Shown here: positions 10,292 through 16,900 of the stretch, piece by piece
How positions within the stretch are numbered: position 1 is the stretch's first letter
Layout: every line of letters starts with the position of its first letter
Sequence record: OR525704.1
Origin: Escherichia phage vB-Eco-KMB35
Reading direction: 5' to 3' (one strand)
Length of the DNA stretch: 43,891 nucleotides
Notes under the pieces: generated by a model
Told to the model about the DNA's origin: nothing
Seen by the model: only the letters and a program-made list of their open reading frames with translations
The model's database searches: none
Program-made: the position numbers and the translations under genes

Positions 10292-10704
10292 TGGGCTACT
10301 TTGAGGACTTAACAAAAGCGTTCGATGTTCCGCTGGTAGCCTTCGGAACCGCCAACGGCATCAAGGTTGCGCTTGAAAACATCGACGCGCCGACGTCAAC
10401 CGATACGCCGTATCTGGCGAGTTACATGCTACTGGCAGATACTGAGCAGGCGGATTTGTTCTTCACTGAGCAACGCTCTGGTATTTATCAGGTAGACATT
10501 AACTACGCATCGGTGAAAGGTAGCGCGCCAATCAATAAAATGGCAGACTTACTTAACACGGCGTTTAAAGCGGGTAAGTCATTTTCGCGTAACGACATCT
10601 GCGCCGAGGTTCAATCGGTTAGCCTGGGGCCGCTGATTGTAGAAAACGGATGGGCCAAACGGCCATTGTCAATTAACTTTATAGCATTCACCAAGAGGCT
10701 GTGA
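10291..10704 (+). CDS. Tail terminator protein (putative)
   Basis: 137 aa, immediately upstream of major tail protein gene. Confidence 0.45.
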   Translation: MGYFEDLTKAFDVPLVAFGTANGIKVALENIDAPTSTDTPYLASYMLLADTEQADLFFTEQRSGIYQVDINYASVKGSAPINKMADLLNTAFKAGKSFSRNDICAEVQSVSLGPLIVENGWAKRPLSINFIAFTKRL

Positions 10705-10706
10705 AT

Positions 10707-11873
10707 ATGGCTACAACTCCTTTTAAGGGCGCGAATACCGCGCAATTCTATGTGGCGGAAGTGACCCCGGGTGTAACACCGACTAACCCGGTCTGGTCAC
10801 CATTACGTAACACGGGCGGTGTTCCTGCCATTACCCGCGACACGCTGACCTCCAACGAACTGGACGGCAGCCGTGAAACTACATCCATCCGCACCGGTAA
10901 CAAACAGGTTAGCGGTGAATACGCAATTGAGCTTAGCTCTAAAAGCCAGGACGACTGGTTAGCCGGGGCTTTAGGCTCTACGTGGCAGGCTGGCGCATCT
11001 CTGTCAGGGTTATCGATTACCGTCGCACCGGCTGGCAAGACGTTCACACGTGCCACCGGCAGCTTTATCACTGACGGAGTTGTGGTAGGCGACCTGATTG
11101 CGTTTACCGACTTAACAGGCGATAACGCAAAACCATTTATCGTTACTGCAGTAACAGCTACGGTCGTTACTGGTGCTGGTATCCAACACACCCTGACCAC
11201 CGAGACAAAAACTAGTAAGGCTAAAACTGGCGACACGCTGGAAACCGGTAACACGTGTAAGACGTTCTCTATCCTTACCTGGTACAAAGGCCAGTGCGGC
11301 GGCACTGACGCGTACACGTTAACCAAAGGCGTGGAAGTTTCTGGTTTCACTATTGAGCAGTCAGTTAACGCTATGGTAACCGGCAGCTTCCCATTCATCG
11401 GTCGCAGTCAGGAGATTCTCACTACGCCGCCGACCGGTTCCAACTTCTCATCTATTACTTTTGGTGATGAGCCATTCTCTTCGGTTGACGTTTCCGTGTT
11501 CGATGGCTCTACGCCGTTGCGTTGTGATAGCCTTACCATCACCAACGACAACAGCGCGTCCGCACAGTTCGAACTCGGCAACTCTAACGTTGCGTTTGTG
11601 GAACGTAGCCGCGCAGCTAACACCTTCTCCATCTCCGGTAAGCTGTATGACATGGCTATGATTCAGAAGTTTATCAACGAACAGCAGGTAGAGATTAACT
11701 CTATTCTGGCGGGGGTAAACGGGGCTATGTCTTTCAGTTTGAAACGTGCGGAGCTTACGGCAGTTACCCCAGAGATTGGCGGACCTGAGTCAATCACTCA
11801 GTCCATTGAAGGCCAGGCTACTGGCAACCAGTACCAGTCGTCTATTGTTATTCAGCGTATCACCTACGCATAA
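10707..11873 (+). CDS. Major tail protein
   Basis: 389 aa from ATG 10707 (RBS AAGAGG 8 nt upstream); position before chaperone/tape-measure genes; terminator downstream. Confidence 0.6.
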   Translation: MATTPFKGANTAQFYVAEVTPGVTPTNPVWSPLRNTGGVPAITRDTLTSNELDGSRETTSIRTGNKQVSGEYAIELSSKSQDDWLAGALGSTWQAGASLSGLSITVAPAGKTFTRATGSFITDGVVVGDLIAFTDLTGDNAKPFIVTAVTATVVTGAGIQHTLTTETKTSKAKTGDTLETGNTCKTFSILTWYKGQCGGTDAYTLTKGVEVSGFTIEQSVNAMVTGSFPFIGRSQEILTTPPTGSNFSSITFGDEPFSSVDVSVFDGSTPLRCDSLTITNDNSASAQFELGNSNVAFVERSRAANTFSISGKLYDMAMIQKFINEQQVEINSILAGVNGAMSFSLKRAELTAVTPEIGGPESITQSIEGQATGNQYQSSIVIQRITYA

Positions 11874-11875
11874 AA

Positions 11876-11904
11876 CTAAGGCCCCGAAAGGGGCCTTTTT
11901 TATT
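11876..11904. terminator. Bidirectional terminator ggcccc-gaaa-ggggcc followed by ttttttatt
   Basis: Perfect stem-loop between convergent major tail gene and minus-strand cassette. Confidence 0.7.
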
Positions 11905-12133
11905 ACTCATCAATGTTACTCCTGTACTCCCGTAACTTTTCCAGACTTTCAATTGCTTCCGCTAAGTCGGTTCCGGTGTCCTTGTGTCCACGTAAACCCA
12001 TGCACAATAGCTTCTTCAATGCGTGCTGTAACGCCGGGTCGCGGATGTCGAAAGCGCGGAGCACATCATAAACGTCTACTGTCATAGTGCTGCCGTGAGT
12101 GTTTGTCATTGTTCGGTTGTATTTTGAAGTCAT
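11903..12133 (-). CDS. Hypothetical protein (76 aa), last gene of reverse cassette
   Basis: ORF overlapping stop of upstream gene (12130), ends at terminator. Confidence 0.5.
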   Translation of the reverse strand: MTSKYNRTMTNTHGSTMTVDVYDVLRAFDIRDPALQHALKKLLCMGLRGHKDTGTDLAEAIESLEKLREYRSNIDE

Positions 12134-13260
12134 CCCAGCATCTCCGGTGAAATAGTTAAACGTGCGACCTCGCCATATTCGGCGCTATAAGTAATTACAT
12201 TTGCACTACGGCCTGACATCCACCCGCCGCGGGAGGCATAGGCGTCTTTAGCCGCTAAGGTGCGGTGTTGCTCAACAATCATGTTACGGCTTTCTACAAT
12301 CTTCTGGTGGTGCAGGTGGCCTACGTGGGCGTAGCTATAGACACTCTCACCGAACGCTTTGCGGAATTTGGCAATCATAACCGGTTCGATAGCATCGAAT
12401 CGCGCCTTATGCCCGTGGTGAAAGAACAACGTCGTTTTTCCGTGTTGCACCATCTTGTAAACATCCGGCGACGTATCGACAATCACTCGGCTGTCGTTCG
12501 AATATAAAACTGTGAACATTTCAGCCAGCCATACAGAGCCTACAGGGTCATGGTTCCCCTGTACGATAAGCAAGCGAACATTTTTATGTTTAACCAGTGC
12601 CATATCTACAACACGGCGTACCATACGAATCATGTAGCGGACGAGTTTCTGGTAGCGAGTGTCTGCGTCCAACACGTGACGCGACTCAGGTGTAACGGCA
12701 TCCAGACTATCGAAGTGCGCGAAATCACCCAGCAGGTTAATAACTCCTGTTCCTGCATCCGGTGCTTTCTGAAACGCCGCGTCGAACCAACGAGAGAACA
12801 GGTCTTCCGCAATCTTTATATCCCAGTCGTCGCCGCTCTCGTCGGCCCAGGCAAGCATACCGAGATGGAAATCAGATACCGTGTAAAGATTGAGTAGCTT
12901 GTCGTCGCGTTTGGCTCGAGTCGCTTTAGCCGGCGCAACTGGCGTAATCTCTGACTTCATGCCTTCAATCACGGCTTTCATCAACTCGACCTGACGTTCA
13001 GCGTCGGTGTCTGTCTTAACCCATTGCAACTTAGTATTGCCGAACTCGTCTACCAGAGACGACGTCCCTTTAATCTTGTAGCCGTCTGGGACAAGGTGGC
13101 TAACGTCACGCCCGTGGCCTACACCTTTCTTAGCCAGCTTCGCTTTACGGATACGAATAACTCGGTCTGAGATGCCGTATTTACGGGCGATGTCTACATT
13201 CTTCATCCCGGCGTTCAATTCTTCCTGTAACTGTTCGTCGGTTATTTTCTTCTGGGCCAT
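12130..13260 (-). CDS. HTH-domain / calcineurin-like metallophosphoesterase fusion protein
   Basis: 376 aa; N-terminal HTH (NVDIARKYGISDRVIRIRKAK); phosphoesterase motifs SDFHLG, LGDFAHFD, GNHD, HHGH, GHLHH in canonical order. Confidence 0.6.
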   Translation of the reverse strand: MAQKKITDEQLQEELNAGMKNVDIARKYGISDRVIRIRKAKLAKKGVGHGRDVSHLVPDGYKIKGTSSLVDEFGNTKLQWVKTDTDAERQVELMKAVIEGMKSEITPVAPAKATRAKRDDKLLNLYTVSDFHLGMLAWADESGDDWDIKIAEDLFSRWFDAAFQKAPDAGTGVINLLGDFAHFDSLDAVTPESRHVLDADTRYQKLVRYMIRMVRRVVDMALVKHKNVRLLIVQGNHDPVGSVWLAEMFTVLYSNDSRVIVDTSPDVYKMVQHGKTTLFFHHGHKARFDAIEPVMIAKFRKAFGESVYSYAHVGHLHHQKIVESRNMIVEQHRTLAAKDAYASRGGWMSGRSANVITYSAEYGEVARLTISPEMLG

Positions 13261-13325
13261 GCTTACTTCCTCGTGTTTAGGATTTGTCCTATTTAACCAC
13301 AGTGGATTCCTTTAAATAAAGGCAA

Positions 13326-13652
13326 CTATTTACTTTCTGCGCCTATCGCCCACCCTGTCATTACCATTTGCAGACGGGTGGCTGTCAGTAGGCTATAGAA
13401 AGCATCTCCGTTTTTCTCTACCGAACGTATCACTGTGTAGGTTACGGCCTGCGGGGGTAGGCCCGATTTACCAACCTCCACGGCGGCCTCACACTCGCGA
13501 ACTGTAGAGTCCTTGAACGCCTTTACAATAGTAGGGTCGGCTTTATCAAGCACACCAGAAGTCATAAGAACAGATTCACTAAATACCTGTTCGCACGGGG
13601 CTCCAAAAGTAGCAAAAGACATAAAACCCAGAGCTAGTACTAATTTACGCAT
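13326..13652 (-). CDS. Secreted/periplasmic protein (108 aa) with N-terminal signal peptide
   Basis: MRKLVLALGFMSFATFGA signal-like N-terminus; promoter element directly upstream. Confidence 0.55.
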   Translation of the reverse strand: MRKLVLALGFMSFATFGAPCEQVFSESVLMTSGVLDKADPTIVKAFKDSTVRECEAAVEVGKSGLPPQAVTYTVIRSVEKNGDAFYSLLTATRLQMVMTGWAIGAESK

Positions 13653-13677: not shown

Positions 13678-13709
13678 TGAATAGTACCCTATTATATTGG
13701 GGTGTGCAA
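13678..13709 (-). promoter_or_regulatory. Promoter element family A, copy 2 (identical to 4554..4585)
   Basis: 32-nt exact repeat; TTGCAC-N17-TACTAT in minus-strand sense, upstream of 13652 start. Confidence 0.6.
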
Positions 13710-13816
13710 GTAGTGTGCTAGAATAAGTTTGCGCCTAGTGTCGCACACGAAAAGCGGGTGGTTCCCGCCTGGCGCATTAACCATAACCAGTAACCTCTTA
13801 ACCAAAGGACTAAAGA

Positions 13817-14233
13817 ATGAAACTTTCTGATTTCTATTTTGCCGACCGCCACGCCGCCGGTACTAAAATGCCTATCCTTCTGCCCAGTGGTAAAGATTCC
13901 GGTGAATGGTTGCAGGTCATCGGCCCCGATTGTGACGCTGGTGTTCGTGCGGGCCGTGCCTACACCACGGCAATTCGACGCCTTACGGAAGAACTTGCGC
14001 CATTAGATAAAGAGTGCGAGGCGCTGAATAACTGGGCGCGCTATAATGATGAGAAGGGCTGGCGGGTGATGGACCTGAACAAGCAGCTTGCCGTGGAAAT
14101 CGTCACCGGTTGGTCATTCGACGAACCATTCAGCAAAGAGGCGCTTGCTAACCTGTTCGACCAGTACAGTGGGTTGGCAGAGGCCGTAGTTAAGCATCAC
14201 ACCGATAGCCGTGAGAAACTCTCGGAAAAGTAA
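13817..14233 (+). CDS. Tail assembly chaperone (G-like)
   Basis: 138 aa immediately upstream of tape measure gene; overlapping -1 frame ORF downstream. Confidence 0.6.
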   Translation: MKLSDFYFADRHAAGTKMPILLPSGKDSGEWLQVIGPDCDAGVRAGRAYTTAIRRLTEELAPLDKECEALNNWARYNDEKGWRVMDLNKQLAVEIVTGWSFDEPFSKEALANLFDQYSGLAEAVVKHHTDSREKLSEK

Positions 14234-14595
14234 AAGCGCTGTATGAATTTGCGCAATGGTGCTTTGTCGACCGCCACAAACGTAAGCAATTCGACGACAT
14301 CGCGGCGGGCCACCAGGCGGCTTTGATTGCAATGGGCGTGATTAAAGAACCGCAGATGAAAGAAGCGACGGGGCCGGAATGCCCCGTTTCTCTTATCGAC
14401 GTGTTCGAGAAATACCGTGCCATTAAATTCCTACAGCGCGAAACAGATGATACTATCGTTATAATCCCGCGCGATGCGCTCAAATGGCAAGATTTGGTAG
14501 CGTTTCGTGATGTCGCCGGTTACGGCATAAGTTTGTTCGAAGCCGAGGTTATCATGGGCTTAGACGGAATATTTGAGGGCAGAGAAGATGGCTGA
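14215..14595 (+). CDS. Tail assembly chaperone frameshift extension (GT-like), reached by -1 frameshift near GGAAAAG 14224..14230
   Basis: Frame-1 ORF open from 14215 to 14595, overlaps chaperone 3' end and ends at tape-measure start; slippery A-rich run. Confidence 0.45.
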   Translation, partial: ETLGKVKALYEFAQWCFVDRHKRKQFDDIAAGHQAALIAMGVIKEPQMKEATGPECPVSLIDVFEKYRAIKFLQRETDDTIVIIPRDALKWQDLVAFRDVAGYGISLFEAEVIMGLDGIFEGREDG

Positions 14596-16900
14596 TACGG
14601 CTTCCCTAATTGCCAGAGTAAAAACAGAAGGCGCTGATGTAGCCGCTAAACAGCTTGACGCTATGGCGGCATCCGCAGACCGTGCGGACACATCCGTAAA
14701 CAAACTAACGCCGGATGTTAATAAAGTAAACTCCGCTACGTCTAAAGCGGCTTCTGACGGTTTCGCTAAATTCCGTAACGCCGCCGGGCAGGTAGGCTTC
14801 CAGGTGCAGGACATGGTCGTCCAGTTGCAGTCCGGTACGTCAGCATTTGTGGCAATAGGCCAGCAAGGTTCGCAACTTGCGGGTGCTTTCGGCCCTGGTG
14901 GTGCTGTGCTTGGGGCCGTAATCGCACTAGCGTCGGCTGTTGGTGGAGTACTGTATAAATCACTAACCGAAGCAGAAGGCAGTTCAAAAGACCTCGAAGC
15001 CGCGCAGAAACAGTTAAAAGATACTTTCCAGCAAACGGCATCTGGCTCTCTCGAGCTGACAGACGGCCTTATCCAGCTTACCCAAATCAGCAGAGAAGCA
15101 GCGGAGACTCAGCTTGCTCTGGCTAAGGCTAACGCGGACCTTATCGCGCAGCAAACCGCTAAAGCTGTTCGTGAAGATGCCGAATCATGGGAAACGTGGA
15201 AAGCCTCCACGGCATCGGCGATTAGCCAGTATGATGCATTAGTCTCTAAGGGCGCAGATGTAGGCGACACATTAGAAAAACTCGGCGGCACTTACGAGGG
15301 CAACATCGTAGGCGTCAACATGCTGGCGCAGAATATCGCGGAGCTTAGCAGTAAGTTCGGAGTTAACCGTGACCAGGCGCTGGAGATGATAGCGGCGCAG
15401 AGTGCGTTTAACAAAGAGCCAACCGCCGAGAATGCCCGTCGCATCGCCGATGTGTTTACCGACTGGCTCGGTAACACAAAACAGTTGAACCCGGAACTTA
15501 TCCGCCTGACGGACAACGCCAACAAGAACGCCACGGCACTGGAGAACGCGGAGAAGTCAGCAAACGCGGCGGCAGAGGCCCAAAAGAATCTTGGTCGCAA
15601 CGTCAACTCAACCACGCAGAGATTCCAGGAACAGAACGAAGCTATCGTCAAAAACCAGCAAATCGCCATCTTAAGCGACCGTGAGCGTATCCGGGCGCAA
15701 GCTGAACTTGATAAACAGGCGTTCGCTAAACGTGAAGCCGTCACCAAAGAACAGATAGCCGCGTATAATGCGGCCCGCGACGCGGAAGCGCAGCAAGACA
15801 TCGCCCGCATTGACAAGACCGAGAAAGAGAAGGCCGACCGCGAGGCTAAATCGAACGAGGAACGTCTGGCGGCACAAGCCAAACGCGAAGAAACAGCGGC
15901 ACAACGTCAGAAAAAAGCGGCGGAAGATTTCCTGGCTACTGTCGACCGCACAACCGGAGACGAAATTTCACGTATCACAGCGGCAGAAGAACAGAAACTG
16001 GCGAAACTTGAAGAGTTCAACCGCGCCGGAACGATAAGCCAGCAGCAGTACGAAAACGCCAAAACTCAAATTATGCTCACCGCCGAGCAGGCCAGACAGG
16101 AAGAACTGGATAAGAAAAGAAAAGAGCAGCAGGAAAAGCAGCAGAAAGGCGACGACTTCATGGCCCAGATTATGGGTCAGAACGCCGCTGAGCTTGAGCT
16201 TCTCGACATCCAGGAACAGCAGAAACTGTCGGTAGCAGATAAGTACCGCGAGCAGGGTTTGATTAGTGAGAAGCAGTATCAGGCTGCGCTTAATGCCATC
16301 AACGAGCAGTACGCCACGAAGCGTGCCGACGCAACGGCAACGGCCTTCGGTAACATGGCCTCAAACATCGGTTCGGCTTTGGGCGAGGCTTCTGGCGCGT
16401 ACAAGGCATTCGCTATCGTGCAGGCCACTATAGCCACGTACACCGCGGCTATTGAGGCGTATAAGTCAACAGCGGCTATCCCTGTAGTTGGCCCGTTCCT
16501 GGCTCCTGTAGCTGCCGCTGCTGCCGTTGGGGCGGGTATGGCGCAGATTTCCGCTATCAGGTCCGCACGTGAACAGGGCGGACAGTTATCCGCGGGGCAG
16601 GCTTCAACCATCGCCGAACGCGGTAAACCAGAAGTTATCATGCCCGCTGGTGCGTCACGTGTACGCACCGCACAGCAGATGAAAGAAATTATGGGGCAAA
16701 ACGGGTCTTCTTCCGGACCGTCTAATGTTACTATCGTAAACAACACGAGTTCTCAAATCGGCAACGTATCCACTGAGCAAGATGATGAAGGCCGTTTGCG
16801 TATCATCATCGAGGAGCAAGTGGCTGCCTCTTTGCAGAACAGTAACAGTAAGATTAGCAAGGCCCGCAAGGCCACAAGAAATGCGCCGGGGTTTAAATAA
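14588..16900 (+). CDS. Tail tape measure protein
   Basis: About 770 aa, long Ala/Gln/Glu/Lys-rich helical protein after chaperone pair. Confidence 0.8.
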   Translation: MADTASLIARVKTEGADVAAKQLDAMAASADRADTSVNKLTPDVNKVNSATSKAASDGFAKFRNAAGQVGFQVQDMVVQLQSGTSAFVAIGQQGSQLAGAFGPGGAVLGAVIALASAVGGVLYKSLTEAEGSSKDLEAAQKQLKDTFQQTASGSLELTDGLIQLTQISREAAETQLALAKANADLIAQQTAKAVREDAESWETWKASTASAISQYDALVSKGADVGDTLEKLGGTYEGNIVGVNMLAQNIAELSSKFGVNRDQALEMIAAQSAFNKEPTAENARRIADVFTDWLGNTKQLNPELIRLTDNANKNATALENAEKSANAAAEAQKNLGRNVNSTTQRFQEQNEAIVKNQQIAILSDRERIRAQAELDKQAFAKREAVTKEQIAAYNAARDAEAQQDIARIDKTEKEKADREAKSNEERLAAQAKREETAAQRQKKAAEDFLATVDRTTGDEISRITAAEEQKLAKLEEFNRAGTISQQQYENAKTQIMLTAEQARQEELDKKRKEQQEKQQKGDDFMAQIMGQNAAELELLDIQEQQKLSVADKYREQGLISEKQYQAALNAINEQYATKRADATATAFGNMASNIGSALGEASGAYKAFAIVQATIATYTAAIEAYKSTAAIPVVGPFLAPVAAAAAVGAGMAQISAIRSAREQGGQLSAGQASTIAERGKPEVIMPAGASRVRTAQQMKEIMGQNGSSSGPSNVTIVNNTSSQIGNVSTEQDDEGRLRIIIEEQVAASLQNSNSKISKARKATRNAPGFK

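Follow-up and report, generated by a model that had tools for sequence, protein, structure and literature searches.

The synthesis of a minor fusion protein by a -1 ribosomal frameshift between two tail assembly chaperone genes has been described in tailed phages, phage lambda gpG and gpGT among them (Levin 1993; Xu, Hendrix and Duda 2004, as cited in PMC5009743), the lambda G:GT ratio being about 30:1 (PMC5009743). This work deals with the corresponding locus of Escherichia phage vB-Eco-KMB35 (sequence record OR525704.1), a Kagunavirus, whose whole stretch of 43,891 nucleotides (nt) is referred to here as the window and provides all coordinates. In this locus, the open reading frame (ORF) of a G-like tail assembly chaperone (13817..14233, plus strand; 138 residues by standard decoding) is overlapped by a T-like ORF in the -1 frame. 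As in lambda, both overlapping ORFs lie just upstream of the tape measure gene, the second one is in the -1 frame and lacks a start of its own, the slip would occur near the end of the first ORF with tRNA-Lys on A_AAG, and the minor fusion product is expected to act as an assembly chaperone. However, lambda employs the canonical heptamer G_GGA_AAG several codons before the stop, whereas here only the tetramer is conserved, its AAG being the last codon before the stop. In the phage studied here the slip site is followed by a long-range helix, while the lambda slip is not known to need a downstream structure, and the Pfam families of the chaperones (Phage_TAC_4 and Phage_TAC_18) differ from those of lambda. 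The reading that we favor, with a probability of roughly 0.78, is that a -1 slip on A_AAG yields a 259-residue G-T fusion, and that it is probably stimulated by the long-range helix.

Sites at which A_AAG is used as a tetramer or within a hexamer are known from IS1222 (G_CGA_AAG), from Bacillus subtilis cdd (A_CGA_AAG) and from tetramer users of the IS3 family (PMC5009743; PMC4066793). They share with the present locus a single tRNA-Lys slip on an in-phase A_AAG, a non-slippery codon in the peptidyl (P) site and a nearby 0-frame stop, and they depend on a stimulator placed about 5 nt downstream, the distance at which the candidate helix begins here. Their stimulators, however, are local pseudoknots, stem-loops or, in the case of cdd, an upstream Shine-Dalgarno (SD) sequence, whereas the locus under study has neither a conserved SD nor a local hairpin, and its candidate stimulator is a direct long-range duplex. 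Long-range 3' stimulators have been reported in luteo-, diantho- and umbraviruses, in the IS3 family (apical-loop/internal-loop pairing over 44-104 nt) and in T7 gene 10 (more than 200 nt) (PMC5009743). In common with them, the slip-adjacent sequence pairs here with an element at least 100 nt downstream, a pairing supported by covariation. In the known cases the distal partner modifies a local stem-loop, whereas here a single-stranded proximal element pairs directly with the distal arm which, again unlike those cases, has moved between at least three positions in evolution. As far as we have found, an architecture consisting of a tetramer, an abutting stop and a covarying, relocating helix is undescribed.

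The probable slip site and the coding of the -1 frame

The 0 frame of the G-like ORF reads ...CTC TCG GAA AAG TAA and ends at 14233, and the -1 frame, closed by a TGA at 14212..14214, is open from 14215 to the TGA at 14593..14595 (126 codons). An earlier annotation made from the letters of the window (the sequence-only reading) had proposed that ORF 13817..14233 is overlapped by a -1 ORF at 14215..14595, and inspection of the sequence confirmed this overlap, which spans 19 nt or 6 codons. It was also correct in placing the end of the -1 ORF just inside the tape measure gene (8 nt inside, the ATG being at 14588) and in noting, at 14224..14230 of the plus strand, a GGAAAAG that is not a canonical heptamer, as it reads G_GAA_AAG in phase and does not follow the X_XXY_YYZ pattern. 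In contrast, the ATG that it placed at 14323 is actually a TTG: this codon, 92 nt beyond the G stop, is the first ATG, GTG or TTG of the -1 frame, and the first ATG is found at 14332. Only the last four bases of the heptamer are conserved. These constitute the proposed slip site A_AAG (14227..14230, plus strand), made of the wobble A of the penultimate codon and the final sense codon AAG, as indicated by its conservation among relatives and by the fusion seam. It is adjoined by the 0-frame stop UAA (14231..14233, plus strand), whose U and A are bases 2 and 3 of the first -1 codon, GUA (Val). The spacer that separates the slip tetramer from the helix (14231..14235, plus strand) has a length of 5 nt that is constant in all lineages, L062 included.

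Conservation was assessed on related loci gathered from IMG/VR and metagenomes, which provided 126 unique junction sequences; clustering at 80% nucleotide identity gave 43 lineages, whose proteins are as little as about 50% identical. An AAAG immediately 5' of the G stop was present in 123 of the 126 unique sequences and in 40 of the 43 lineages. The three bases that precede it are GGA, CGC, GGT, AGC, GGC, GGG, AAA, TGT, CCA or GTC, the GGAAAAG combination being the commonest variant (about 60% of unique sequences). The penultimate codon can be GAA, GCA, GUA, GGA, AAA, CAA or UCA, thus encoding seven amino acids (E, A, V, G, K, Q, S), and its final base is always A. The last codon is always AAG, which represents 38% of the Lys codons in the tail genes of the phage, and the first -1 codon, Val, is GUA, with A in the third position, a codon that makes up 28% of the Val codons in this phage. 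Of 123 abutting stops, 122 are UAA or UAG and only that of L066 is UGA. In L062 the stop comes one codon later (A AAG UUA UAG), and the -1 frame, the 5-nt spacer and the GCGCUGU block described below are kept. Two lineages (L079 and L139/L143) carry at the same position a dnaX-type canonical heptamer, A_AAA_AAG, and both retain the helix, L079 in a 10-base-pair (bp) local version and L139 as 13 bp of long-range pairing. Judged from this alignment, the conserved and putatively slippery unit is the tetramer A_AAG with its abutting stop, not the heptamer GGAAAAG. Since the P-site codon and its -1 counterpart vary, a tandem slip of the P- and aminoacyl (A)-site tRNAs on GGAAAAG is not the conserved requirement. 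No conserved purine-rich or SD-like block was found upstream of the slip site in the alignment of relatives, and an upstream SD-like stimulator such as those of dnaX or cdd was rejected on this ground.

The first ATG, GTG or TTG in the -1 frame appears from +11 to +281 after the G stop, at positions that differ among lineages, yet conservation of the T protein sets in right at the seam (KV-x-ALY-x-[FY]-A-x-W...QKFD...GHEAALIAMG). In the stretch free of start codons, the mean pairwise difference was 0.55-0.57 at -1-frame third positions versus 0.23-0.29 at first and second positions, and across the 71 aligned sequences the -1 frame had no stop, as compared with 51 in the 0 frame and 158 in the +1 frame. 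As coding is conserved upstream of starts that wander, independent initiation cannot be the conserved mechanism. The alternative named in the sequence-only reading, in which T would be initiated on its own, conflicts with the fact that conserved coding begins upstream of every canonical start. Its central proposal, a programmed -1 frameshift joining G and T, is the best-supported reading, in view of the TAC families, of a phrog_15027 match that runs across both ORFs and of the conservation in relatives. The arrangement was likewise said to be conserved, which agrees with the lineage counts given above for A_AAG and the stop and with the presence of the -1 ORF in all relatives. As for the suggested tRNA-Lys slip on GGAAAAG, the re-pairing from AAG to AAA is conserved, whereas the three bases that open the heptamer are free to differ between relatives.

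The predicted fusion, join(13817..14230, 14230..14595) on the plus strand with the slip at A_AAG, has a Lys-rich junction, ...LSEK/VK/ALYEFAQWCFVDR, in which the Ala of ALYEFAQWCFVDR precedes the CUG at 14239. The G-like ORF matches PF08748 (Phage_TAC_4, E=1e-8) and positions 1-138 of phrog_15027, and the T-like part read after the slip (14230..14595, plus strand; 121 residues plus the stop) matches PF23812 (Phage_TAC_18, E=9.5e-18) and positions 138-259. This phrog_15027 is a single 259-position profile whose alignment covers G residues 1-138 and passes into the -1 frame at the AAA codon 14227..14229. The chaperone ORFs also match phrog_313, and no other Pfam family, lambda's own G/T families included, matched them at E<=0.1.

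The frameshift product is not new, as it is already annotated in phage K1H, which shares about 95% nucleotide identity with the window at this locus. The deposited 259-residue K1H fusion (ADA82316.1 / YP_009168853.1 / UniRef100_D2XJD7) is identical to the one predicted for the window, and the coordinates of the two-piece RefSeq coding sequence 'ORF19B' exactly match a slip at A_AAG; the K1H pair ORF19A/19B therefore has the same seam, as an annotation only. Other records treat the locus differently. Escherichia phage AnnaReinhart_Bas75 (Bas75), which like other Kagunavirus genomes is 99.9% identical to the window over 13700..14700, presents the second chaperone as a separate coding sequence, 14239..14595, that begins at the non-canonical CTG 14239 (L001 2040..2396). 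Most assemblies and public gene calls give proteins of 138 and 87 residues, the latter from ATG 14332. The authors who described Shashou saw no canonical slippery sequence (PMC6776780), and in the literature on Kagunavirus, Jerseyvirus and Guernseyvirinae we found no account of a slip motif or an RNA structure beyond that remark. The first residue matched by PF23812 is precisely the one that TTG 14323 encodes; the model was probably derived from such truncated ORF calls and would lack the conserved 36 N-terminal residues.

A long-range helix downstream of the slip site

Column conservation disclosed a second invariant or near-invariant block, GCGCUGU, at +5..+11 after the first base of the stop, and this invariance includes the synonymous positions of the Ala GCG and Leu CUG codons. 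Folding of the adjacent region provided no local hairpin: the RNAalifold consensus over 119 nt amounted to -0.1 kcal/mol, with three trivial pairs, and the local fold of the window was weaker than that of shuffles (z = +1.82). These two values led us to reject a hairpin or pseudoknot that acts locally, within about 115 nt of the slip site, as the stimulator. What the region does contain is a long-range helix. In the window, the proximal (5') arm GCGCUGUAUGAAUUUG (14236..14251, plus strand) pairs with the distal (3') arm UAAAUUCCUACAGCGC (14424..14439, plus strand), which lies inside the T ORF and comprises the codons K-F-L-Q-R. The helix consists of 8 bp, one U.C mismatch and 7 bp, and the duplex of both arms has an energy of -18.3 kcal/mol. 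When the segment 14231..14445 was folded alone, the minimum free energy (MFE) structure held all 15 pairs, with probabilities of 0.84-1.0, and continued inward; this domain (z = -3.33) was better than 199 of 200 shuffles. A scan of 14100..14650 against Rfam at E<=1 yielded no match.

In every lineage the proximal arm keeps its place 5 nt past the slip tetramer, despite a distal arm that is found at about +200, +130 or +45. Specifically, the distal arm ends at about +205..+210 in clade A (Kagunavirus-like, which includes the window), at +134/135 in clade B (Jersey-like) and at around +49 in two further lineages. The paired arms, proximal and distal respectively, are GCGCUGUA and UACAGCGC in the window (8 bp), CGCGCUGUUGAAAU and AUUUCAACAGCGCG in L012 (14 bp), CGCUGCAUAAAUU and AAUUUAUGCAGCG in L139 (13 bp), GCGUUGCU and AGCAACGC in L173-180 (8 bp), GCGUUGUUUC and GAAACAACGC in L181-189 (10 bp), and UGCGCUGUACGAAUUUG and CAAAUUCGUACAGCGCA in L080, where 17 bp form a perfect duplex. 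A fixed proximal arm with a relocated distal one is the pattern expected if the point of contact between helix and ribosome matters. G.U pairs occur at many positions of the helix, which fits a sense-strand RNA rather than a DNA repeat. The clade B sequences L022-L024 possess, in addition to their distal arm at +129, a second, degenerate version of the distal arm of clade A (UCAUACGACGC, 7 of 8 pairs, at about +195..+208), and these double arms may represent an intermediate in the relocation.

The helix exists and covaries. Counts were made on 42 sequences and 17 pairs in clade A and on 29 sequences and 11 pairs in clade B. The proportion of paired cells was 84.2% in clade A and 84.6% in clade B, and fell to 19-51% and 17-50%, respectively, when the partner was slid. 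Cells changed on both sides numbered 18 in clade A (shuffle mean 5.3) and 25 in clade B (shuffle mean 11.7), and none of 500 shuffles in either clade reached the observed count, although, the sequences being phylogenetically related, these shuffle counts are not probabilities. In clade B, pair 19-142, which connects the C/U at 14239 with the distal arm, was CG in 22 sequences and UA in 7, with zero broken. Unguided RNAalifold returned the long-range helix as the sole consensus structure in clade A, with no conserved structure inside its 170-nt loop, and as the outermost helix in clade B. Codon choice in the distal arm gives further support: all 21 Ile codons are ATA (16% usage in this phage), CUA encodes 4 of 5 Leu residues (6% usage), and 38 of 42 Arg codons are CGC; in clade B the nucleotides CA-GCG-C are kept although the encoded amino acids change (A/T/P, A/T and Q/R/P). 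A positional control, in which all arm starts from -100 to +300 (about 395) were scored in each of 40 lineage representatives, placed the +4..+6 arm start as the single best in 21 of the 40 lineages, within the top 1% in 30 and within the top 5% in 39. Inside the clade B helix, RNAalifold additionally proposed two small hairpins (alignment A4 columns 70-73/93-96 and 100-104/115-119), one pair of which is CG in 12 sequences, UG in 8 and UA in 8; these would give a domain resembling a three-way junction.

More distant relatives, at 30-45% identity (L046, L047/L197, L048, L049, L198-L200 and L204-L208), carry canonical in-phase heptamers (T_TTT_TTC, A_AAT_TTT or A_AAT_TTC) located 25-58 nt before the G stop, those with T_TTT_TTC or A_AAT_TTC that precede the helices described next at 25-49 nt; L049 also has a T_TTG_GGC at its last two codons. 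In L047/L197, with T_TTT_TTC, the top-ranked helix has 12 bp and closes a 221-nt loop, and in L198-200, with A_AAT_TTC, it has 14 bp and a 127-nt loop; in both cases 0% of the control starts did as well. A 9-bp local hairpin follows the heptamer of L208. These helices, the L208 hairpin included, start 4-7 nt past their heptamers, which indicates that the helix follows the slip site and not the stop codon.

Proposed mechanism and competing explanations

The element found 3' of A_AAG is a conserved long-range helix that begins 5 nt downstream, with a predicted stimulatory role. E. coli is taken as the host on the basis of the 99.9% identical E. coli phages. In tetramer assays carried out in this bacterium, Z_ZZN alone gave about 0.15% frameshifting versus a background of 0.11%, and A_AAG was by far the best tetramer in combination with a downstream stimulator, reaching up to 5.6%, with a spacing of 5 nt (PMC4066793). 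Because bare A_AAG stays near background in E. coli, a stimulator would be needed for lambda-like levels, and the comparison of sequences suggests that the helix is most likely the stimulator of the A_AAG slip. The sequences show the geometry of the ORFs, the conservation of A_AAG, a -1 frame that codes in the absence of a start codon, and a helix that covaries; the slip in vivo, its efficiency and the function of the helix as stimulator are inferred.

Most ribosomes would read ...GAA AAG and terminate at the UAA at 14231, thus producing the 138-residue G-like chaperone. While GAA occupies the P site and AAG the A site, the helix would sit at the mRNA entrance of the ribosome and resist translocation, and the abutting stop probably adds a further pause. 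A minority of ribosomes would then slip one base back on A_AAG (14227..14230), with tRNA-Lys moving from AAG (14228-14230) to AAA (14227-14229). The only tRNA-Lys of E. coli (UUU) decodes both AAA and AAG and pairs poorly with AAG (PMC5009743). After the slip, the next codon would be GUA (14230-14232), and translation would proceed in the -1 frame up to 14595 to give the 259-residue G-T fusion. Alternatively, the slip might happen one step later, with peptidyl-tRNA-Lys in the P site and a slowly decoded stop in the A site (a 'shifty stop'); the resulting protein would be identical, and the two routes cannot be told apart from sequence. Ribosomes in the 0 frame would terminate 5' of the helix and leave the T region mostly unoccupied, so that arms this far apart could pair. 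If the analogy with lambda gpG/gpGT holds, the fusion would connect the tail tube subunit with the tape measure protein.

The role of the helix could be a different one. It has to be considered that frameshifting by A_AAG and a shifty stop may be real while the helix contributes little to slippage and has another job: it might hide internal starts, or keep RNase E or Rho-dependent termination from acting on a T region that is little translated. The helix does enclose most of a segment that, judging from the geometry, at least 90% of ribosomes would never enter; long loops are atypical for stimulators, and per-sequence duplex energies stand weakly above the null. Such a job, however, would not need the 5' arm to keep its exact 5-nt distance from the slip site as the 3' arm changes place, nor would it place helices after the differently positioned heptamers of distant relatives, and the near-background behavior of A_AAG alone in E. 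coli (PMC4066793) leads one to expect some stimulator, so that we regard this explanation as unlikely. A tandem slip of two tRNAs on G_GAA_AAG, with tRNA-Glu re-pairing on GGA and tRNA-Lys on AAA, would yield the same protein product and would agree with the prevalence of GGAAAAG, with the re-pairing of tRNA-Glu at two of three positions, with the efficiency of G_GGA_AAG-type heptamers in E. coli (PMC5009743) and with the true heptamer A_AAA_AAG found in two lineages. Yet relatives differ in the P-site codon and in its -1 counterpart (GCA/CGC, GUA/GGU, UCA/GUC and others), a variation which renders this possibility distinctly unlikely.

It seems very improbable that no frameshift takes place and that T is translated alone from CUG 14239, TTG 14323 or ATG 14332, or by termination-reinitiation after the G stop. 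The separate coding sequence 14239..14595 of Bas75, the 87-residue ORF present in many records and gene callers, the conserved [C/U]UG at 14239 and the canonical slippery sequence not seen by the Shashou authors (PMC6776780) would all be in line with this notion. It is opposed by the conserved coding found upstream of every canonical start, a start which wanders from +11 to +281, and by the lack of a conserved SD before the CUG, as the bases upstream vary (CGCAAAG, AGCAAAG, GGUAAAG and others), and it leaves unexplained the invariant wobble A at 14227 and the choice of the AAG codon. Use as a start codon was rejected as the reason why CUG 14239 is conserved: its C/U changes together with the distal arm (CG:22, UA:7) and relatives share no SD ahead of it, so that its conservation is explained by pairing. 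Transcriptional slippage on the A run, leading to an mRNA with one A fewer or more, could invoke the short AAAA at 14226..14229, but four As (three in the GGUAAAG and CGCAAAG lineages) are far under the 7-9 residues needed (PMC5009743), and its likelihood is negligible.

A number of points weigh against a slip on A_AAG stimulated by the long-range helix. The lineage of the window carries the weakest version of the helix (8 bp, U.C mismatch, 7 bp), and an alternative local pairing, 14233..14242/14256..14265 (+2..+11/+25..+34; AAAGCGCUGU/AUGGUGCUUU), competes for the proximal arm. In the window this alternative has 10 bp, including 3 G.U, and a 13-nt loop, and folds that include the distal arm lack it in both the MFE structure and the ensemble. 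It is also unusual for a stimulator to close a loop of 170 nt. When the proximal arm was confronted with the T ORF by RNAduplex in each sequence, the fraction of synonymous shuffles at or below the observed energy was 0.02-0.36; this null retains the CAG and CGC codons and the energy model permits large internal loops, and alignment-based and positional controls were used instead. To the relatedness of the sequences behind the shuffle counts it must be added that the helices of distant relatives come from single or near-identical sequences and lack covariation (the relatives retrieved for L046/L047 were too few and too similar), and that the literature searched provided no experiment on phages of this group in support of either the fusion protein or the helix.

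Genomic context and meaning for the phage family

Both chaperone ORFs are placed between the tail tube gene and the tape measure gene, as in the lambda G/GT-type arrangement. The tail tube gene (10701..11873, plus strand; PF18906 Phage_tube_2, E=2.7e-37) lies upstream in the ORF list, and the tape measure protein gene (ATG 14588; 14588..16900, plus strand) is identified by phrog_1538 (E=1e-197) and by the annotation of Bas75 and K1H, its start being overlapped by the end of T over 8 nt. The records of these two phages label the product of 13817..14233 as 'tail assembly chaperone'. A minus-strand island of 1.75 kb (11903..13652) inside the plus-strand tail module separates the tube gene from G. 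It contains three minus-strand ORFs, encoding proteins of 76 residues, 376 residues (metallophosphatase-type, named 'DNA repair exonuclease' in the Bas75 and K1H annotation) and 108 residues, the latter with a signal-peptide-like N terminus.

A G/GT frameshift is a textbook feature of tailed phages and, its product being already in databases, it is ordinary by itself. The analysis nevertheless resolves a split annotation practice in the large and therapy-relevant Guernseyvirinae (Kagunavirus, Jerseyvirus and relatives), where some records join the ORFs, some use the CUG start, most call the 87-residue fragment and one paper denies a slippery sequence. It also offers a natural, deeply conserved pairing of a minimal tetramer site with a long-range helix, that is, a clean system for the requirements of stimulators, and it illustrates that the fixed short folding windows of frameshift predictors can overlook relevant structure. 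A bolder and rather doubtful proposal is that the helix represents a relocatable long-range clamp that makes the minimal A_AAG productive and has a built-in negative feedback. According to it, ribosomes stopping at the G stop would never melt the helix, whereas a frameshifted ribosome would unwind both arms as it crosses the T ORF, thus switching the stimulator off for those that follow. If true, this feedback would keep the GT:G ratio low and roughly independent of the translation rate. Closures that span the T ORF, with loops of 127-221 nt, may then be widespread in the frameshift signals of phage chaperones, possibly having been missed because surveys fold only 35-120 nt downstream.

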